Shown in pieces: positions 14,300-62,895 of a stretch of 64,000 nt of DNA (positions are counted from its first letter, which is position 1; every line of letters starts with the position of its first letter). A program made the translations under genes and the position numbers. The stretch is from Eledone cirrhosa (taxonomy: Eukaryota): positions 235,724,001 to 235,788,000 of the forward strand of contig OZ024740.1 in the NCBI GenBank assembly GCA_964016885.1, in the 5' to 3' direction. Under the pieces are notes generated by a model that was not told where the DNA came from, did not search any database, and worked only from the letters and a program-made list of their open reading frames with translations.

Positions 14300-14890
14300 T
14301 TCCATCCACATCTACAGTATCAGAGCCGCAGATTTTTGTTGAGGAAACTCCAACTATATCTAGCCGGTAGCATCTAGCCTCCTCTACTAGTTCCTGCTCC
14401 TTACTTGTTCCAGGTTCCAATTGTCAAGGTTTGCTCCCATCTGGACCCTCTTTGGGGTTTCAGGATACGGAATCCTTGTGCGTTCAACCCACACCTCCCA
14501 GTTTTTTCAGCATGAAATGGAGATTGCAATATATTTTTCAAACAGGCCCTTCTACCTAAGGCCTGAACATGTCCCTTGTTAACCTGCATGAAGGACGATG
14601 TGGTATGGTTATTTTTGCTCCTCTCACCATATTACAGTTGAAGTTTCGGGGTCTTATTCATACCAGTCACCAATCTGATACTTTGTCAATCCTGTGAAGA
14701 CTAGGCTTTTTAGGGGCTGCCTTTACTCACCTCGTCATAGTTATATCAGTGTCGTGAGAGTTTTCTGGGGAGTTACAGGTGTCACCCATTGCCCCATCTC
14801 CCCTACTAGTTTACTGCTGTTGGTCCAGGTGCCGCTTATATCACAACTACCCATTATATCAGGTGGCTGTATCACTATCCATCACCTGTG
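14300..14890 (-). mobile_element. RTE LINE 5' fragment (start of the AP endonuclease)
   Basis: Minus strand LTIGTWN followed by frameshifted KEQELVEEARCYRLDIVGVSSTK. Confidence 0.75.
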
Positions 14891-15326
14891 ACCCATTCTC
14901 TAGCAGAACAGCTCTGCTGAGAATGAAATTGAAGCTGTTATTTAATTTAAATCCTTAAGTTTCATTTTACTCTGCTTATGTCAAAAATACACTTTGAGGA
15001 GAAAGACATGAATGTCACCAAATCTCATTTTCCTTCTTATATGAATCTGAACCATTTTATAAATGTAAGGTATCAATATTTAAATAGTCATATTAATCAT
15101 TTTGTTTTGGTAAGTTCCTAATATTCCAAATTTGAGACCAGTGTATTGAAGCTATTTCTACTTCACTTTGTCTATTAATGACTTTGGGACTGGTTGGCTG
15201 ACACAGTTAACATCTATCATAATGTTCATCTCATATTCCGGCATTTAAAAATCAGGTTCATTTCCAAAAGATTAATAACTGAATAAAAATGATTACTTTC
15301 TACAACTGTTTCTACAGTTGTTTCAG

Positions 15327-15539
15327 TTAACCCTTTAGCATTTAAACTGGCTATATCTGGCCAGAATTCTCTCATCACTTTCTGTTCAAATTGGCTGTAA
15401 CTGGCTGCTCATACTGATGTTAAGGTATTCTTCTCAAAATAAATATCAATATCTCATAGATTCGATATTATGTGAGATAAAGCCTTTACCATGAAAACAT
15501 AATAGTATATATAGAGTAATGTAAATGCTAAAATGTTAA
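15327..15539 (+). mobile_element. piggyBac-type MITE (TTAA TSD included)
   Basis: TTAA-CCCTTTAGCATTTA ... TAAATGCTAAAATG-TTAA. Confidence 0.8.
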
Positions 15540-15623
15540 ATCTTCCATTAGATGCTAGTAATAATATATCCACTTTTACAATAATATATCCACTTTTAAT
15601 GATTTTGTTTTTATTTCATTCAG

Positions 15624-15689
15624 TTCTCCAAGGAACCCTCACCAAAAACTTGTCAAACGAATCATTGCGCTAGAAGGAGACAACATTCG
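15624..15689 (+). CDS. IMMP2L: Internal exon of mitochondrial inner membrane protease subunit 2 (peptidase S26; catalytic-Lys exon)
   Basis: Acceptor tttttatttcattcag| and donor |gtaaga; 66 nt, phase 2 at both ends. Translates (x)SPRNPHQKLVKRIIALEGDNIR, matching vertebrate IMMP2L [22 protein letters not shown] from memory. Paralogue IMMP1L fits less well but was not excluded by search. Confidence 0.88.
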
Positions 15690-15883
15690 GTAAGATATTT
15701 CACAATTTCTTGTTGTTAATGATGTGATTGGTCTTTCTTGTCAATTTGTTGATATGAAATGAGAACTATCAAAAGATTGTGTTCTTATTGGTATTTGTTT
15801 AGATTTGGATGTATTAAATATGTATTAACCCTTCAGCAGTGAGTCAGTATGAATTAGGAACTTAATGGGAAAAAATGATATCA

Positions 15884-16112
15884 TTAACCCTTTAGCATTT
15901 ACATAACTCTATATTTACTATTATATTTTCGCAGTAAAGGCTTTACCTCACATAATTATCTCACATAATATCGAATTTATGAGATTTTGATATTATTTAT
16001 CTTGAGAATAATACCTTAATATCGGTATGAGTGGCCGGTTACAGCCAGTTTGAACAGAAAAAGGTGAGAGAATTATGGCCAGATATGGCTGGTTTAAATG
16101 CTAAAGGGTTAA
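15884..16112 (-). mobile_element. piggyBac-type MITE, same family, opposite orientation
   Basis: TTAA-CCCTTTAGCATTTA ... TAAATGCTAAAGGG-TTAA; the interior is the reverse complement of 15331-15535. Confidence 0.85.
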
Positions 16113-16589
16113 GTGTTATGTTAATGTTGGGGTAACTGAACAAATACCAATACATTGAATACTGTATTCATTTCTGTGGACTTTATCCTTTCTTACTGAT
16201 AAAACCTAATTTCTTTTCTCTGCAAAAATGTCATACTTGATATTTGATCTGTTTTTAACTGGATGTTAATTCAATAATGTGGCACCAGAAGGTGACTCAG
16301 CAGTGTGAATCAGACTGTGACACAATGTGCTGTGGGAGTAGATAGAAATACAGTAATGTCAAAGCAGAATGTCACATAATTGTGCTGCACTAGGTGTTAA
16401 GACATTTGTGTGCTATCAGATTGAGACATTGTAGTGTGAGAAGAGATGGTGACACAATAATGTGGCAATAGAAGGTGATACAGCAAATGTTGACACAGTG
16501 GTGTTAGACCAGATGGTAACAGCATGGTGTGAAAAGGTGTAAAACCAGAAGGTGACAATGATGTGGCACAAGACAAAGACACCTTCATG

Positions 16590-17414: not shown

Positions 17415-20250
17415 TCTATATATTAATACACTAATACCTACGTACCGTCCGACCGCGTGTGTCACGCTTTCAGTAAAACAATGGAAGTGGGGTAGTAAAC
17501 AATCTACGAAAATCTGCGGCGAAAGAAAATGAAAGAGCATTGCAACATAGAGAAAGGAATGGGTTTAATATATTTAGAGAGATAGGGGTGTGTGTCATGT
17601 TTTCAGTAATTACATGCTTAACCCTCAGTTTGTTATTTTTTTTTGTTACAAGTTTTTATTTATGACAAACATCATCTCTAACCACTTTCTTATACCAGCT
17701 AAGTGTTCTTCATAATTAATGAAACAACCATTCTTAAAAATGGAAGATAGAATAAGTCAACAAAGAGAGGCAGTGAGAGAGCCATAAAGAAGACAACGAC
17801 AACGGTTATGAGCAGAAGAGAGGCAAGCAATCCGTGACCGTAATTGAGAACAAATGCAAGAAAGGAGGAATGATATGAGCCAAGAGGAGAGAGAAGCTTA
17901 TCTACAGAATAGAAGAAGCTGAGATCATGATAGAAGAAATAAAATGAATCCAGAGGAGCGAGAAGCTCATCTATAGAATAGAAGAAGTGCAGATCATGGC
18001 AGAAGAAATAACATGAATCCAGAGGAGAGAGAAGCTTATCTACAGAATAGAAGAAACAGAGTTCAAGAGCGAAGAAATGACATGAATCTAGAAGAGAGAG
18101 AAACTTATCTACAGAATATGAAAAACAGAGATCACGAGAGAAGAAATGACACAAATCCAGAGGAGAGAGAATTTTATCTAGAGAATATGACAGTTCAACA
18201 GCGACGAAATGCCATAATTGAAGAGCAGCCTTTACGTTTCCATATTGATGATATGAATGTCATTTGTCAATACTGTGAATGTCATTTGTCAATACTGTTC
18301 TCAGGAGAACCCCTGAATTGCTGCCACAATGGAAAAGTATTACTTCCTGCTTTACAAGAATATCCTGATAACCTTAGGCTATTATTTGATATAAATAACC
18401 ACAAAGGATCTAATTTTAGCAACAACATAAAAAATTATAATTCTGCCTTTGCATTTGCTTCTTTTGGTGCCAATATCAAACCTCCACTGGAACGTGGCCC
18501 TTATTGCTTCCGGTTACAAGGCCAAATATATCATTATGCCAGCAACTTGCATCCAAACGAAAATGAACAGAGAAGATATGGTTAGCTCTACATCATTGAA
18601 ACAAATGAAGCAATCCATACCCGAGAAAATGCTAATGAAAATGCAAATTGCTTATTATCGGTGTTTGAACAAATAATGGTTTCAATGAATAATAATCCTT
18701 ATGCAGCAGCATACAATAATATGAGAACTGTTGAAATGCAAGAACAACAGCGAGCTGCAATAGAAAATATCCCTTCTAGAAAAGTAACCATGAAATTCAT
18801 AGCTGGCCATGATGCAAGAAGATACAATAATCCAACAAAGATGGAGTGCCACCACTACATCGTGATATTGTTGTATATCCTATAGGACAACATAAAGAGA
18901 GAATATCGTACATTTCTTGCCACTTAGACCCCATGGTATATCTTCTTCTCTTTCCAAATCACGATCAAGGATGGCATATTAACATGCTGCACATACAACA
19001 TCATCAAACAAGAGTTTGTAACAAAGTAACAATGCAGGAATTCTACGCATTCCACTTGGCCATAAGAGGCAGTTTCAGTGTAATATATCGAGCGCGAAAA
19101 TTATTTCAGCAATGAATTGTTGATGCATATATAACGGAATACTGCTATGTTTTACCGGCGAAGATTCGAAGCCGAATCTGAGCTTTCCCACCTCTGGGAC
19201 AATCTATCGTTGGAAATTCTCGCCATTGTCCTGTCAAGACAACGATGATAAATGTACATTCCATTTGACCTGTGACCCCAATCTCTTGGGAGATGCTAAC
19301 CACAGGTCAGAACATAAATCAACCTCATATATCTATCCTTCTAACTTTAGCACTTATTATAAATACAAGGAGTTGGGGAACCAAAAGGTCAGACTCGAAG
19401 CAAGAGTCAACAAGATAAGCGATATAGGCATTAGCAGAACTTTCACTCTATCTTTCTCCTGGTCCTTACTGGCTTACCCTCTTGGCCACTGACACAGCCA
19501 GACAGGTCAGACAAGAAGCGGCAGTCAACAAGATAAGCGATGTAGCATCAGTAGACCTTTCACTCTATCTTTCTCCTGGCCCTTACTGGCTTACCTCCTC
19601 GGCCACCGAAACAGCCAGACAGCCAGCCATGCCTGCCTGACAGCTTGACCATTACTACTATAAGAATAGGCACACACACACGCATATTGTTATATTATAC
19701 TCTCATCCTATTCTACCGGTAATATTGTATCTGCAAGAGACAACACAACTCATATTATATAGTCTTACATGCATTCACATAGCTCGTAGCAGCTACCAAT
19801 TTTCTGAACGGATATTTTCATGTCATAAATTTTATTATTCAATGTTCAAATTGAATATTGTTATTATAAAATAAACATTGTAAACAACTCAATCATGGCA
19901 TTATTCTTTTCATCAAAACTAACACACAAAGAATACAACTTATCCGTTACTCATATGTTAAAGTAGAGGGATGTTGCTTGAATTTCATTGAAAATAACCA
20001 AGCACAGTTGAGAGTAGCAATGTACTCTGGATCACCTAGCGAGAAACAATGAAATTGATGAGCCAGGAGTCCCTGTTATTCTGCCTTCAATTTTCACTGG
20101 GAGCCCAAGGAATATGCAACAATCATATAGTTTGAAAATATGGAAAACCTGACCTATTTATAACTTATACGTGCAATCCAAAATGCCAAGAAATTACCAA
20201 AAATCTAATGCCTCACGAAACAGCTCAAAACAGGCCAGATTTAGTAGTGT
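17415..20250 (+). mobile_element. Decayed autonomous-type Helitron, 5' half (RepHel N-terminus and start of Rep)
   Basis: 5' TCTATATA; motifs CCHNGKVLLP, NYNSAFAFAS, FRLQGQIYH, DPMVYLLLFP, KLFQQ*IVDAY, VILPSIFTGSPRNM, YGKPDLFITYTCNP, NRPDLVV; stops and frameshifts; no 3' end found. Confidence 0.92.
19130..19951 (+). mobile_element. Solo LTR (Gypsy-like) inserted in the Helitron ORF
   Basis: 4-bp TSD CATA; inverted ends tataacgga/tccgttact; internal direct repeat of about 110 bp; AATAAA near 19870; removal restores GAT GCA TAT GTT AAA (DAYVK). Confidence 0.75.
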
Positions 20251-20934: not shown

Positions 20935-23900
20935 GTATGTGTCGGTGTTTGTGTGTGTGTGTGTGTGTGTTTCTGTATCTAGTGTTAGTGTGTCTGTGTA
21001 CATGTGTGTCGGTGTTTGTGTGTCGCCGTGTGTGTGTTTCTGTATCTAGTGTTAGTGTGTCTGTGTACATGTGTGTCGCCGTGTGTTGTGTGTGTGTGTG
21101 TTTCTGTATCTAGTGTTAGTGTGTCTGTGTACATGTGTGTCGCCGTGTGTTGTGTGTGTGTGTGTTTCTGTATCTAGTGTTAGTGTGTCTGTGTACATGT
21201 GTGTCGCCGTGTGTTGTGTGTGTGTGTGTTTCTGTATCTAGTGTTAGTGTGTCTGTGTACATGTGTGTCGCCGTGTGTTGTGTGTGTGTGTGTGTGTTTC
21301 TGTATCTAGTGTTAGTGTGTCTGAGTACATGTGTGTCGCCGTGTGTTGTGTGTGTGTGTGTTTCTGTATCTAGTGTTAGTGTGTCTGTGTACATGTGTGT
21401 CGCCGTGTGTTGTGTGTGTGTGTGTGTGTTTCTGTATCTAGTGTTAGTGTGTCTGAGTACATGTGTGTCGCCGTGTGTTGTGTGTGTGTGTGTTTCTGTA
21501 TCTAGTGTTAGTGTGTCTGTGTACATGTGTGTCGCCGTGTGTTGTGTGTGTGTGTGTTTCTGTATCTAGTGTTAGTGTGTCTGTGTACATGTGTGTCGCC
21601 GTGTGTTGTGTGTGTGTGTGTTTCTGTATCTAGTGTTAGTGTGTCTGTGTACATGTGTGTCGCCGTGTGTTGTGTGTGTGTGTGTGTGTTTCTGTATCTA
21701 GTGTTAGTGTGTCTGAGTACATGTGTGTCGCCGTGTGTTGTGTGTGTGTGTGTTTCTGTATCTAGTGTTAGTGTGTCTGTGTACATGTGTGTCGCCGTGT
21801 GTTGTGTGTGTGTGTTTCTGTATCTAGTGTTAGTGTGTCTGAGTACATGTGTGTCGCCGTGTGTTGTGTGTGTGTGTGTTTCTGTATCTAGTGTTAGTGT
21901 GTCTGTGTACATGTGTGTCGCCGTGTGTTGTGTGTGTGTGTGTTTCTGTATCTAGTGTTAGTGTGTCTGTGTACATGTGTGTCGCCGTGTGTTGTGTGTG
22001 TGTGTGTTTCTGTATCTAGTGTTAGTGTGTCTGTGTACATGTGTGTCGCCGTGTGTTGTGTGTGTGTGTGTTTCTGTATCTAGTGTTAGTGTGTCTGTGT
22101 ACATGTGTGTCGCCGTGTGTTGTGTGTGTGTGTGTGTGTTTCTGTATCTAGTGTTAGTGTGTCTGAGTACATGTGTGTCGCCGTGTGTTGTGTGTGTGTG
22201 TGTTTCTGTATCTAGTGTTAGTGTGTCTGTGTACATGTGTGTCGCCGTGTGTTGTGTGTGTGTGTGTGTGTTTCTGTATCTAGTGTTAGTGTGTCTGAGT
22301 ACATGTGTGTCGCCGTGTGTTGTGTGTGTGTGTGTTTCTGTATCTAGTGTTAGTGTGTCTGTGTACATGTGTGTCGCCGTGTGTTGTGTGTGTGTGTGTT
22401 TCTGTATCTAGTGTTAGTGTGTCTGTGTACATGTGTGTCGCCGTGTGTTGTGTGTGTGTGTGTTTCTGTATCTAGTGTTAGTGTGTCTGTGTACATGTGT
22501 GTCGCCGTGTGTTGTGTGTGTGTGTGTTTCTGTATCTAGTGTTAGTGTGTCTGTGTACATGTGTGTCGCCGTGTGTTGTGTGTGTGTGTGTGTGTTTCTG
22601 TATCTAGTGTTAGTGTGTCTGTGTACATGTGTGTCGCCGTGTGTTGTGTGTGTGTGTGTTTCTGTATCTAGTGTTAGTGTGTCTGTGTACATGTGTGTCG
22701 CCGTGTGTTGTGTGTGTGTGTGTTTCTGTATCTAGTGTTAGTGTGTCTGTGTACATGTGTGTCGCCGTGTGTTGTGTGTGTGTGTGTTTCTGTATCTAGT
22801 GTTAGTGTGTCTGAGTACATGTGTGTCGCCGTGTGTTGTGTGTGTGTGTGTTTCTGTATCTAGTGTTAGTGTGTCTGTGTACATGTGTGTCGCCGTGTGT
22901 TGTGTGTGTGTGTGTGTGTTTCTGTATCTAGTGTTAGTGTGTCTGTGTACATGTGTGTCGCCGTGTGTTGTGTGTGTGTGTGTGTGTGTTTCTGTATCTA
23001 GTGTTAGTGTGTCTGTGTACATGTGTGTCGCCGTGTGTTGTGTGTGTGTGTGTTTCTGTATCTAGTGTTAGTGTGTCTGAGTACATGTGTGTCGCCGTGT
23101 GTTGTGTGTGTGTGTGTGTGTTTCTGTATCTAGTGTTAGTGTGTCTGTGTACATGTGTGTCGCCGTGTGTTGTGTGTGTGTGTGTTTCTGTATCTAGTGT
23201 TAGTGTGTCTGAGTACATGTGTGTCGCCGTGTGTTGTGTGTGTGTGTGTTTCTGTATCTAGTGTTAGTGTGTCTGTGTACATGTGTGTCGCCGTGTGTTG
23301 TGTGTGTGTGTGTGTGTTTCTGTATCTAGTGTTAGTGTGTCTGTGTACATGTGTGTCGCCGTGTGTTGTGTGTGTGTGTGTTTCTGTATCTAGTGTTAGT
23401 GTGTCTGTGTACATGTGTGTCGCCGTGTGTTGTGTGTGTGTGTGTTTCTGTATCTAGTGTTAGTGTGTCTGTGTACATGTGTGTCGCCGTGTGTTGTGTG
23501 TGTGTGTGTTTCTGTATCTAGTGTTAGTGTGTCTGTGTATATGTGTGTCGCCGTGTGTTGTGTGTGGGTGTGTGTGTTTCTGTATCTAGTGTTAGTGTGT
23601 CTGTGTACATGTGTGTCGCCGTGTGTTGTGTGTGTGTGTGTTTCTGTATCTAGTGTTAGTGTGTCTGTGTACATGTGTGTCGCCGTGTGTTGTGTGTGTG
23701 TGTGTTTCTGTATCTAGTGTTAGTGTGTCTGTGTACATGTGTGTCGCCGTGTGTTGTGTGTGTGTGTGTTTCTGTATCTAGTGTTAGTGTGTCTGTGTAC
23801 ATGTGTGTCGCCGTGTGTTGTGTGTGTGTGTGTTTCTGTATCTAGTGTTAGTGTGTCTGTGTACATGTGTGTCGCCGTGTGTTGTGTGTGTGTGTGTGTG

Positions 23901-37983: not shown

Positions 37984-39804
37984 TGATATTATTTTTTCCC
38001 ATTAATTTTCTATTTCATACTGGTGGATGTGTAATAGTAATACACTGTGCTGAGAAAGACCCATCCAACCCATACAAGCATGGAAAAGCAGACATAAAAA
38101 CGATGATGATGATATTATATATATTATATATAATAGACTTGGAATCACCACCTTGCCCCCCCCCCCCCCCCCAAAAAAAATTTTTTTTTTGCCTGCCTGC
38201 CTTATCTATTCTGATAAAACCTGTTTTGTTTTTTTTCTAACCTTCCAATCTCCTCTTTCTCTGAACTTTTCTCTTTCCTGACGAAGGACTAATGTCCTAT
38301 ACATTGAAACACTCTTTTCCCTTTTTTAACAAGTATGAAACTAATAAGACTTCATGTTATTGTATCTATGTGTCCGTTTTGTTTCTCTTGAACTATATAT
38401 AGTAACATGCATACAAAGCTGCATGCACACATTCTACATATACATATCTATATGTACATACATACATTTACACCTGCTATATATATATATACATATATGT
38501 AAGCTGATATATTTGGATATATCTACTCCATCATATGCACACATTACCAGATTAAAAGAACAGAAAAGAAAGCCTGATTGATTTCTATATGTGTACTAAT
38601 TTCATTTATTAGTACAAAAGCAGAATAGTGCAGTGTGTACTACAGAAAACAACAGAACAGCAAAGTATGTAGACTAGAATAAAATCTGCTATATTCAGAC
38701 AAATCTAATTATGGTTTGTGCTAAATCTAATTGTATGCAGGTCAGGTATGATATCAAAGAGATGGTCAGTTCACACAAAAGAACTCAGTGGTTGTATGTT
38801 CAAAGTGAGTTAAATCCACCTGAATTTTCCAATACCATTAGTGTAATAAAAACCACAAACATTCCAGAAAACTCAAGACACTTCTTTCTGAAAAGTTAAT
38901 CAACAAATGAAAAGAAAGCAATATTAGTGAAGAAGAAAAATATTGTAAAAATCTTTTGGATGTTACCAAAAACAAAATGGCTGACTGATATGAAATAAAA
39001 GGTAGCCATGTTTAAAGAAATTATATCAATTGTTTCTCTGAGCTACATCGCCATCATCACATAGACTATTAACAAAAGATATCTCTGTCTTTTCATCTTT
39101 ACTTTATCAGCCATACAAAATATTCTATCTGTAAATCGTTCAACTCTTATACAATTGCACCAATCTCACAGTCTAGTTCTAGGCAACAGTTTACATGATT
39201 TATTTTGCTTTCTTTAGATTTTGTTTTCTTTGTCCAGCCTATATATTATGCCATAATGTCCAACTGAATAATGAAGCAAATGAATAATAATGACTGCTGG
39301 ATGTTTTTGTTAACAAGTTCTGCTACCTGTAACAAATGAACCACATTCTTTTAGCTACATACCAACCATTCACTCTTCACCAAAATCATTTCACAAATAG
39401 CTGTGATGCAGCCACTGAGTCATTCAAATGTTGAACTGAAACATCACACATGAATACATCAGAATGGTTGTATTAGGATTTGAACTTTTTGTCGTTTGAC
39501 CAGTAGACCATTGTTTGAAGCAGTCAGCTGGGTTGCAGCTCATTGGAGTGTAGCGAGTATGTGAATGAAATCAAAGAGAGATGATTAAATATTCATAAAT
39601 ATATATAAATACAAAGAAGTAAAGTCTCTATGTTATTGTACATATATCTATAAAGTTCTTTAATACGTAGTTGTCTGTATTTGGCTGCTTATATATGTAT
39701 CATCATCATCATCATCGTCGTTTAAAGTACATCTTCCACGCTAGATGGGTTGGAATGTTTTGTTCCATTTGATGCTTGGAAGTTGGACGTTAAACGATGA
39801 TGAT

Positions 39805-51361: not shown

Positions 51362-51545
51362 CATCGCAGTATCAGTAGAGGGTCAGACACCATGCTTTGA
51401 TGCATAGAGTTACGGCCCTTGCCATTCTGAGTTCAAATCCCGTCGAGGTTAACTTTGCCTTTCATCCTTACGAGGTCGATAAAATAAAGTACCAGTAATG
51501 CATTGGGTAATTGCTGGCCTTGACCCAAAAGTAGAAACAATTATT
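51362..51545 (+). mobile_element. SINE family A copy
   Basis: Matches 5725-5910. Confidence 0.85.
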
Positions 51546-52105: not shown

Positions 52106-52444
52106 TGTATCTCATTAGCAGTGATAAAATAAAGTAATTATTTAGTCAGTGGCCATAGGCTAAACTTAAATGTCAAGCTTTAGGTTTTTGCTATCTAATT
52201 TATAAACATTACACTTCCCTAGGGAAGAGTATATTGGCAAAGTCTTTAGAACATTGACCAGAATGCAGTATTTAATTTTATATGCTCTGAGTTCAAATCA
52301 TACTGAGGTCAACTTTTTCTTTTCTCCTTCTAGGATTAATAAAATAAAGTATCAGTCAAGTACTGGGATTGATATAATTAACTATTATAACAGAATCCCA
52401 ACAGTCCAAGATTGTCTACTCACAGTTCCTATTCATCTTTATAA

Positions 52445-52632
52445 TAATTGTTTCTACTTTTTGGCACAAGGCCAGTAATTATCCCAGTTTATTACTGGTA
52501 CTTTATTTTATCGACCCCATAAGGATGAAAGGCAAAGTTAACCTCGGCGTGATTTGAACTCAGATCATAAAGATGCGGTAACTCTATGCTGCAAAGCATG
52601 GCGTCCGACCCTCTACCGATACTGCCAATCCA
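52445..52632 (-). mobile_element. SINE family A copy
   Basis: Reverse complement of 5725-5910. Confidence 0.85.
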
Positions 52633-56591: not shown

Positions 56592-57410
56592 TAATATATA
56601 TTATTTACATACAACAGAAATGACAATGAACCGCTGTGAGGATTGGAGACATGCTGTGCTGGTGAAAACCTGGCTACCATCCTAAAACTATCACGCCTTA
56701 GTAACTAAATCTGACCCAACCCCATCTACATGCCCCCTGCTTCTTGCTAACACCCTCTGGTTGCTATCCTTACTATCACAGCAACTCCTCCCCTTTCATG
56801 CCCCTTCCACACAAACTACCATGCCATGCCTAGTAGGTGTCCTTATCATCATTGTACATCCCCACCCCTACTCTATCCAGGACCATCCCCACTCCCCCAA
56901 ATCCTAACACCCACATTCTATCCAAAGTCAACACCCAATATCCCACTCTAGATTATCTCCTCCATAACCCTGACATCCCAGTCACAGCTGTAGTAGCTAT
57001 TATCACAGTACCTTCCTACCACCCCTCACTTTGTCAAACCCCTCCATCCTTAGCACATGCCCATGACATACACTCCACCTGCTCCGTAGGATAGAGAGAT
57101 CTCTTCAGTTAAGTCAATGATTGACAACCTCTCTAGTGCTGGTGCCACAAAAAATGCACCCAGTACACCCCCGTAAAGTGGTTGGTGAAAGGAAGGGTGA
57201 CCACTGTAGAAACCAAGCCAAAAGAGTTCAGGGGTCTCTTTAGTTGTGTCAGGAGCATGGCAATTCTCTAGTGCTGGCGATTTACATGCTAAACACACCT
57301 AGTATACTTTGTAAAGAGGTTAATGATAGGAAGGGCATCCAGCCATAGAAAACCTTCTAAAGAAAGGGTCAGGAAGACTTCCCAGCTTATAATATATATA
57401 TCAAATTTTT

Positions 57411-57647
57411 GCTCTACATGGCTGAATACAATAAATGTAATCTGAGTTTTTCAAATATTAATAATAATATTCGATTCATTTGCAATTATGCAAACAAGCC
57501 TCATTTTTAAAGCCATGTCAGTAGAATGACCCCCTCAGGACATGGCTTTAAAAATGAGGTTTATTTGCATAATTGCAAATGAATTGAATATTATTATTAA
57601 TATTTTAAAAACTCAGATTACATTTATTGTATTCAGCTATGTAGAGC
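57411..57647. repeat. Fold-back element 4 (109-bp inverted arms, 19-nt spacer)
   Basis: 57411-57519 is the reverse complement of 57539-57647 with few mismatches. Confidence 0.9.
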
Positions 57648-57659
57648 GAACATTTTTAT

Positions 57660-57913
57660 TTTTATCTTATCACCTTGACCGACCAGTCTGTTGGGCGCAA
57701 ATCGTCACAGCACGTCGTGCTGTTTTAGCCATAAGATAACGCCATCCCACTGGCTGGGCGGGCAGGCCGGTACTCATTTCTACAGCTGAGTAAACTGGAG
57801 CAACGTGAAATAAAGTGTCTTGCTCAAGGAAACAACACATCACCCAGTCCGAGAATTGAACTCACAACCTTTTGATTGCAAGCCCAATGCTCTAACCACT
57901 AAGCTATGCTCCT
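57660..57913 (-). mobile_element. CORE-type SINE with the family B head and a different tail
   Basis: Head and CORE are the reverse complement of 6039-6180; the tail differs. Confidence 0.8.
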
Positions 57914-61465: not shown

Positions 61466-62425
61466 CTACATTTTAAATTTATATTTATATTTAAACGTTG
61501 AGTTCAATCTATGTCTGCAGCAACTGAATAAATTGCTCCTTAAATTAAGGGAATTTTTGGATTTTAATATAAAGAATATCTCCTCCACACAGAGGTCACA
61601 TGTCTCAGATGAGGAATTAAAAGGAATCCCTCTTGAGACAATATTCCAAAACATCGAATACCCAACGTTATCATGTTTAAGTTGCCAGAGTAAGCCTGAT
61701 AGTGAAGTTGAAGATTTTTTGTTTGGATCTGTGAAAGAATTCTTATGATTATTGTAGCGAAGTTTAAATTCTGTCGAGGTGGAACCAACATAGTTAAAAG
61801 AATTTAAGTTAGTTTTAACATTACAATTGTATATTATATTTTTAACTAAGCAATTGTTATTTAACGGACATTTAGATTTATTTCTACAGTTACAGTTGTT
61901 TAATTGAATATTGTTTTGGCTATTATCGGTATTTTGGCTAGGTTTTAGATTCCTATTATTTATTCTGTTAATATTTTGTGCTAAATTTTTGGTGGACGAG
62001 TAGGTTAATTTTATAGTATGTCTATTAAAAATTGAGTGATATTTATGTGTTCTAGGGAAACGTTTGTCAAGAGCCTTAAAAAATAGTTTAGCAATGTGGG
62101 TTTTAATATTTAGTGAGAAGGGGGGGGGGAACCATATTATATTTCTAGTTCTATTTCTTTTCCGGCTTTTGGAATTATTGTAATGTTTTCTATTATAGTT
62201 GTTAAAGTTGTTACCGTAATTAAAATTGTTATTATTTTGGTTAGTTTGCCTATTATTATCGATGTACTTAATTTTATCACTATATCCTGCTCTAGCTGAC
62301 GCTTCATTGTAATACTGCGCTTTTTCGTCGAAAATGTTTTTATTAGATGAAATTCTTGAGATACGTTCTTGAACAGAGTTCACTATAGTATTTTTAACAG
62401 ATCTGGGGTGATTAGAGTTAGAATT

Positions 62426-62432
<7 letters not shown>
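61466..62432 (-). mobile_element. Naiad-type PLE: RT thumb, linker and GIY-YIG endonuclease (open frame, 5'-truncated at (TA)n)
   Basis: SNHP, IIWFPPPFS, CNCRxxxxCPL, IIY...YVGST..FKLRYNNH, CDLCVEE, CRH; ORF-track residues upstream of the TA tract are not homologous. Confidence 0.9.

Positions 62433-62895
<463 letters not shown>

Follow-up and report, generated by a model that had tools for sequence, protein, structure and literature searches.

An octopod IMMP2L exon enclosed by inverted copies of an abundant MITE: likely a chance, lineage-specific arrangement rather than a conserved splicing switch

Two copies of one MITE face each other across a short octopod exon that encodes the catalytic lysine of the protease IMMP2L, which raises the question of whether the pair regulates the splicing or editing of that exon or whether it arose by chance. 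A preliminary description of the locus had raised the possibility of regulation, through altered exon definition, exon skipping, back-splicing or ADAR editing. All coordinates below refer to the window, which is the whole 64,000-nt stretch of DNA that was analyzed. The features on which the argument draws are as follows.

15327-15539, + strand: MITE copy 1, 213 nt including both TTAA; left TIR intact, right TIR without its two terminal G.
15560-15598, + strand: 20-nt tandem duplication just 5′ of the branch-point region, from a repeat search.
15593-15623, + strand: candidate branch point, pyrimidine tract and AG acceptor, from sequence and folding.
15622-15623, + strand: AG acceptor, from sequence.
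15624-15689, + strand: 66-nt internal exon of IMMP2L with phase 2 at either end, coding for residues 71-92 of the octopus protein (169 aa).
15655-15657, + strand: codon of the catalytic Lys81, in the IMMP2L exon.
15690-15695, + strand: GT donor site, from sequence.
15744-15754, + strand: weak predicted partner strand of exon bases 15651-15661, about 10 bp with two G-U pairs.
15825-15883, − strand: extension of copy 2, 59 nt, ending in a second TIR-like CCC/TTAA end.
15884-16112, − strand: MITE copy 2, 229 nt including both TTAA, with an internal 13-nt duplication and perfect TIRs of 14 bp.
37768 to about 37984 (to 38022 with a shared 46-nt flank), + strand: MITE copy 3, both TIRs decayed.

The 21 whole codons of the exon were all identical (21/21) to octopod IMMP2L, and the exon peptide was found unchanged in IMMP2L of Octopus sinensis, O. 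bimaculoides, O. vulgaris and Argonauta hians, homologues that carry the name “mitochondrial inner membrane protease subunit 2.” The peptide matched Pfam Peptidase_S26 (PF10502), and its KR motif, which includes Lys81, aligned with the KR of bacterial signal peptidase I. Lys81, which is the catalytic base by established knowledge of S26 peptidases, was kept in 41 of 42 homologue clusters, the remaining one being a truncated model. By its sequence, then, the exon is part of IMMP2L, a peptidase S26 with the catalytic Lys motif, and we saw no protein-level difference from the annotated Octopus and Argonauta IMMP2L (peptidase S26, Imp2). The description of a 66-nt, frame-preserving exon carrying the S26 catalytic Lys holds on the strength of its 2-2 phase, the KR alignment and the complete codon match. 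Searching the 64-kb window by tblastn with eight octopod proteins revealed no further IMMP2L exon, so the flanking introns extend for at least 15.6 kb upstream and at least 48 kb downstream. A PDB search with the exon peptide alone returned 0 matches. Public octopus IMMP2L models (P0002, P0006, P0007, P0008 and P0041) are often split at the intron before the Lys81 exon, likely because this intron is very long.

The MITE copies lie 84 nt (copy 1) and 194 nt (copy 2) from the exon, which confirmed the coordinates reported for inverted, same-family TTAA elements upstream on the + strand and downstream on the − strand. Copies 1 and 2 were identical at 190 of 232 aligned positions (82%, 16 gap columns, E 2e-64), and copy 3, which has no adjoining exon, was the most diverged of the three. 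That two of the three copies in the window sit less than 200 nt from its only exon was also borne out by the distances and the tblastn search. Copies 1 and 2 were each bounded on either side by a TTAA target-site duplication, which copy 3 retained in register; the TIR begins CCCT and is 14 bp long, perfect in copy 2 and decayed at one end in copy 1 and at both ends in copy 3. Copies 1 and 2 are non-coding, with no stop-free stretch above 51 codons in any of the three frames read on the strand of the element.

Published criteria for piggyBac/TTAA MITEs call for a TIR of 12–19 bp with a CC[C/T]T terminus (PMC2872659), and the TTAA target is among the hallmarks of piggyBac (PMC5381638). With TTAA ends, such a TIR, a length below 500 bp and a high copy number with sharp ends, the three copies are a piggyBac/TTAA-type MITE. 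They share with the coral CMITEs (PMC2872659) the TTAA target, a 14-bp TIR starting CCCT, a length below 500 bp, the lack of coding sequence and a high copy number, but differ in their internal sequence, in having copies of about 213–229 nt, and in the rare extension and second TIR-like end of copy 2. The genome of O. vulgaris consists of 66% repeats, with piggyBac and MITE families documented (PMC13282606); we found no name for the octopod family in the accessible text of that paper. No piggyBac transposase was present among the 15 of 41 window ORFs (at least 130 aa) that were scanned, and a degenerate TIR pattern gave 0 matches in metagenome contigs. A stretch of 46 nt in the copy 2 extension recurs in the flank of copy 3 (37977-38022, 41/46 identical), and read depth suggests about one further copy of the extension in the genome run. 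The common flank may be a rare longer form of the MITE or a captured flank. In a third organism (C; run X6, share 0.04), we observed a sister MITE subfamily with only the first 35–40 nt in common, in a run that did not cover the exon and so supplied no outgroup.

Folding predicted the stem of about 200 bp, with the exon and both splice sites in its loop, that had been proposed for this pre-mRNA. The duplex between copies 1 and 2 is predicted to comprise 195–198 bp at −282.8 kcal/mol, a prediction that did not change between 37 and 15°C. In the MFE structure, 195 pairs joined the two copies, 12 of them G-U, in helices of 37, 12, 51, 7, 4, 7, 30, 9, 6, 9, 9, and 14 bp, such that the longest unbroken helix measured 51 bp, and positions 15320-16120 folded far more stably than 20 shuffles (z = −23). 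The predicted 344-nt loop holds the exon and all splice signals, with the acceptor region at least 54 nt off the stem. We then compared folds with copy 2 and after its removal in silico. The mean unpaired probability of the exon was 0.46 with copy 2 and 0.44 without it, and the corresponding values were 0.25 and 0.40 for the 3′ splice site, 0.31 and 0.17 for the 5′ splice site, and 0.24 and 0.35 for the pyrimidine tract. The modeled accessibility of the splice signals is thus little changed by the loss of copy 2. The loop alone folded no better than shuffles (z = 0.23, n = 60 shuffles), and Rfam returned only two sub-threshold matches (E 0.11 and 0.25), which we took as chance.

How unusual is such a pair? 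Counting local inverted repeats with gaps of up to 5 kb, we found that the copy 1–copy 2 duplex was the strongest of 19 in the window; the 18 others occupy the same intronic window, and four of them have duplexes of −225 to −279 kcal/mol. None of 30,897 other repeat-free positions had arms of at least 100 nt within 200 nt on both sides, while the share of repeat-free positions enclosed by inverted arms rose from 0.5% at 500 nt to 3% at 1 kb and 16% at 2.5 kb. Assuming uniform insertion, 1–3 copies per 64 kb and 150,000 exons, this MITE family alone would be expected to enclose 0.7–6.5 exons genome-wide in the way that it encloses the IMMP2L exon.

The abundance of the family was evident in run X1, which represents the same species as the window (organism A, 0.87 of sampled words). 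There, 62,851 records matched positions 14787-16586 at 80% likeness, and contigs passed from the element ends into unlike flanks 1,069 times at 15327, 770 times at 15884 and 652 times at 16112; the summed MITE depth was about 1e5 times that of single-copy sequence, a figure that is not a copy number. Contigs joining two family ends numbered at least 24 tail-to-tail (the orientation seen here) and at least 35 head-to-head in X1, and at least 23 and at least 36, respectively, in X4, a run from a related organism. The X1 counts draw on 15 listed joints, beside 838 more, rest on matching sides of 25–33 nt and perhaps include sister families. A MITE pair enclosing an exon is therefore rare locally but expected genome-wide. 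Since a post hoc scan picks out just such a case and the family is abundant, the pair is likely there by chance. The proposal of a regulatory role is weakened by the same numbers, as the MITE is abundant enough, by the X1 contigs and the expected 0.7–6.5 exons, for chance pairs to occur.

The preliminary description had suggested looking for the MITEs in related species, and in the one relative compared, the pair is not conserved: the downstream copy is missing and the upstream element is kept. This relative (organism B, run X4) differed from A at 127 of 1,216 aligned letters, nearly all intronic (about 10%). One X4 contig (record 10, 577 nt) aligned across the exon over 15548-15812 and resumed at 16137-16324; 13 letters separated the two matches, as against 324 in the window, so that copy 2 and its extension were absent. 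This single contig of a single run is the basis for the absence, and its depth of 18.4 equals single-copy depth (17–18). Another (record 9) matched 14787-15367, running through unique upstream flank and then 41 nt into copy 1, and this view from the 5′ side points to an element at the copy 1 site that is common to A and B. B also carries deletions at 15748 and 15751, within the putative exon-pairing strand, and short deletions at 15582-15593, in the 20-nt tandem duplication.

These observations can be read as a gain of copy 2 in the A lineage beside an older, shared copy 1, or as its loss in B. Private changes numbered 8/213 in copy 2, 15/213 in copy 1 and 26 in copy 3 (copy 2 vs. copy 3, p = 0.003), and dating by branch length, against half the A–B distance (127/1216), was consistent with a gain but not significant (copy 2, p = 0.49; copy 1, p = 0.26). 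We favor the gain because copy 2 has intact TIRs and a short branch. It is possible, if doubtful, that the pair is instead old and was once shared, B having lost copy 2 by deletion, perhaps through instability of, or selection against, inverted pairs so close to an exon. B has 13 letters, 27 fewer than the 40 expected at a clean empty site; the flank common to copies 2 and 3 occurs at about one further place, and the two copies differ at 37/213 positions, above the A–B distance. However, the AT-rich repeats that flank the site are prone to slippage and contain four TTAA sites, and the perfect TIRs and few private changes of copy 2 also speak against an old pair. Loss in B concerns only the history of the locus and can be true alongside a by-product origin of the hairpin. 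We separately considered a recent local hop of copy 3 as the source of copy 2, which was ruled out by the 37/213 differences and the decayed TIRs of copy 3.

Whether the exon is included in transcripts was approached through run X5 (88 million letters), whose RNA nature we infer, as it is not on record. X5 covered the exon bin at a depth of 5.05 and the bin after it at 0.25 (2.97 nt, up to the donor site), and left the other unique intron bins empty; the bin before the exon had more cover than its 3 exon bases explain. From this cover, a spliced transcript that includes the exon likely exists; a skipped transcript would leave no match on the window stretch, such that X5 is silent on the level of skipping. 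No in-frame skip of the exon was seen among 42 homologue clusters or among 8 octopod proteins, a weak and biased search in that protein sets favor complete proteins and come from other species. Models P0006, P0007 and P0041 were considered as skip forms and set aside as truncated models, since they also lack all downstream exons.

An inverted AluY–AluSx1 pair flanking an exon of TBXT is reportedly a case of loop-out skipping, and a comparable event here would have the duplex draw both introns together and a fraction of the transcripts omit the exon without a frameshift, with ADAR editing of the stem tuning the outcome. The predicted product would be a 147-aa protein without the catalytic Lys, specific to the lineage with copy 2. 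We consider this, the main rival reading, unlikely, although several observations lean toward it: the MITE duplex, unequaled in strength and tightness among the long duplexes of the window, sits on the only exon, a placement matched at none of the other positions scanned, the exon is short and symmetric, the end of copy 1 is just 84 nt from the acceptor, and the 3′ splice site and pyrimidine tract are predicted to be somewhat less open with copy 2 present. Primates provide a precedent (PMC13019027; PMC13019944), in that skipped exons show an enrichment of inverted Alus that rises with proximity, and minigenes from which one Alu was deleted showed less skipping (PMC13019944); short exons are also more often skippable (PMC13019027). 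The octopod locus shares with these Alu cases inverted same-family repeats in both introns, a short exon, a long predicted duplex and one lineage-restricted member, but its repeat is a DNA-transposon MITE rather than a SINE, and its skipping is hypothetical. Moreover, skipping in primates accompanies short downstream introns (PMC13019027), whereas no exon follows here within the next 48 kb. Inverted Alu pairs are common around constitutive human exons as well, and MFE barely separates the skipped and constitutive classes (d = −0.12; PMC13019027). The likely exon-including transcript, the lack of a skip form among the clusters and octopod proteins (weak evidence, as above) and the absence of the pair from B weigh on the same side, the last being also compatible with a lineage-specific effect. 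A fuller version, in which the copy 2 insertion created an ADAR- and temperature-tunable switch to a protease-dead IMMP2L isoform that the relative lacks, and with it a DNA-transposon equivalent in cephalopods of loop-out skipping by Alus, is in our judgment decidedly improbable.

Back-splicing, in which reverse complementarity between the inverted MITEs would circularize the exon alone, is an idea to which we give almost no credence. Inverted repeats of 30–40 nt suffice for circularization (PMC4201285) and long flanking introns are found at circRNA loci (PMC6376117), so that the octopod locus resembles the repeat-driven circRNAs of ZKSCAN1 and HIPK3 in having inverted repeats near both splice sites and long introns (PMC4201285). 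Its exon, however, has 66 nt, against medians of 169–253 nt for single-exon circles (PMC6376117), and is far below the lengths that circularized, ZKSCAN1 exons of 400 nt or less having done so poorly or not at all (PMC4201285). The suggestion that the MITE pair promotes back-splicing is thus disfavored by exon length (PMC4201285; PMC6376117), and no back-splice junction was present among the 15 contig joints listed (of which there are 838 more).

Editing of the MITE arms themselves is plausible by analogy with squid, in which ubiquitous editing falls mostly in introns and UTRs and overlaps repeats, and coleoids recode heavily (PMC9068888). Among the changes listed at 80% likeness (with 117 further entries), A>G and T>C accounted for 10 and 17 of 50 in X5 and for 9 and 15 of 43 in X1, matching spectra in which paralogues dominate X5 and editing is inseparable from paralogue differences. 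The MITE family was itself abundant in the probable RNA run X5, with 107, 102, and 87 contigs passing into unlike flanks.

The idea that the MITE pair leads to recoding of Lys AAA codons is weakened by the folds: the predicted pairing of the exon with either MITE was 0.000, and the catalytic codon lies only in the weak exon–intron stem of about 10 bp, with one bulged A, the other AAA codon being unpaired. It would still be conceivable, though very improbable, that the duplex loads ADAR beside the stem 15651-15661/15744-15754 and thereby recodes Lys81 to Arg, Glu or Gly. Inverted Alus induce editing several hundred nt away (PMC4053975), coleoids are heavy recoders (PMC9068888), and the position of the Lys81 codon in a predicted stem with a bulged A would suit such a scheme. 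As in the Alu editing inducers of NEIL1 and GLI1 (PMC4053975), a long repeat duplex lies no more than a few hundred nt from an adenosine in coding sequence. Unlike those inducers (PMC4053975), the octopod codon appears to lack a credible or conserved short stem, given its two G-U pairs, the shuffle-like loop and the deletions of B inside the partner strand, and editing at this locus is hypothetical. The third A of the codon is synonymous, and Lys81 is near-invariant, so that recoding would only inactivate the enzyme. The term IMMP2L was absent from one supplement of PMC8382921; larger cephalopod editing tables may list it.

We consider it probable, on balance, that the pair is a chance by-product of independent insertions, with a hairpin of about 195 bp that is likely ADAR-edited in its arms, an exon that is likely still included and probably few consequences for the protein. 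Two copies of a very abundant MITE family would have inserted independently, in opposite orientation, on either side of the exon, and the nascent pre-mRNA would form the hairpin with the exon and splice signals in its 344-nt loop. ADAR would edit the intronic arms, to which the edits would presumably be confined and with which they would be lost on splicing, while exon definition would bring the exon into the mRNA. Any skipping would probably be minor leakage, given that its product would have no catalytic Lys and that the introns on either side are long. The splicing or editing regulation proposed for the MITE pair is unsupported, and the arrangement is likely a chance, lineage-specific one rather than a conserved splicing switch.

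As it stands, the locus is one instance of a common arrangement, an inverted transposon pair across an exon. Cephalopods are the animals with the most mRNA recoding, and if skipping or recoding did prove true here, repeat-driven loop-out would extend from primate Alus to cephalopod MITEs and transposon turnover would be linked to mitochondrial protein processing. A natural experiment is available in these two octopods, whose introns differ by about 10% and only one of which has the second repeat; with this presence–absence pair, Alu-type loop-out skipping could readily be put to the test in cephalopods. A literature search, conducted mostly without full texts, found no paper on MITE-flanked octopus exons or on IMMP2L in that context.

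The window held several further features. Near-perfect palindromes lie in the IMMP2L introns at 7171-7441, 7782-8095, 30104-30229 and 57389-57670 (87–98%; 61–144 predicted bp) and are likely foldback elements and further sources of dsRNA. An inverted pair of another abundant repeat (51366-51545 and 52443-52625; 86% alike, 897 nt apart, −258 kcal/mol) has no IMMP2L exon between its arms. On the − strand, a 389-codon open frame at 61469-62635 had no Pfam match; by its motifs it presumably resembles the C-terminal part, with the GIY-YIG endonuclease, of a Penelope-like retroelement. A 202-codon frame at 17977-18582 (+ strand) combines a 69-nt tandem repeat with a Cys-rich part, again with no Pfam match, and we take the Cys-rich part to resemble a Helitron Rep N-terminus. 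We also identified a remnant of a hAT transposase dimerization domain at 31510-31923 on the − strand (Pfam PF05699, E 1.9e-6), and a 6.9-kb array at 20950-27803 composed of 105 copies of a 64-nt TG-rich unit with 95% matches.
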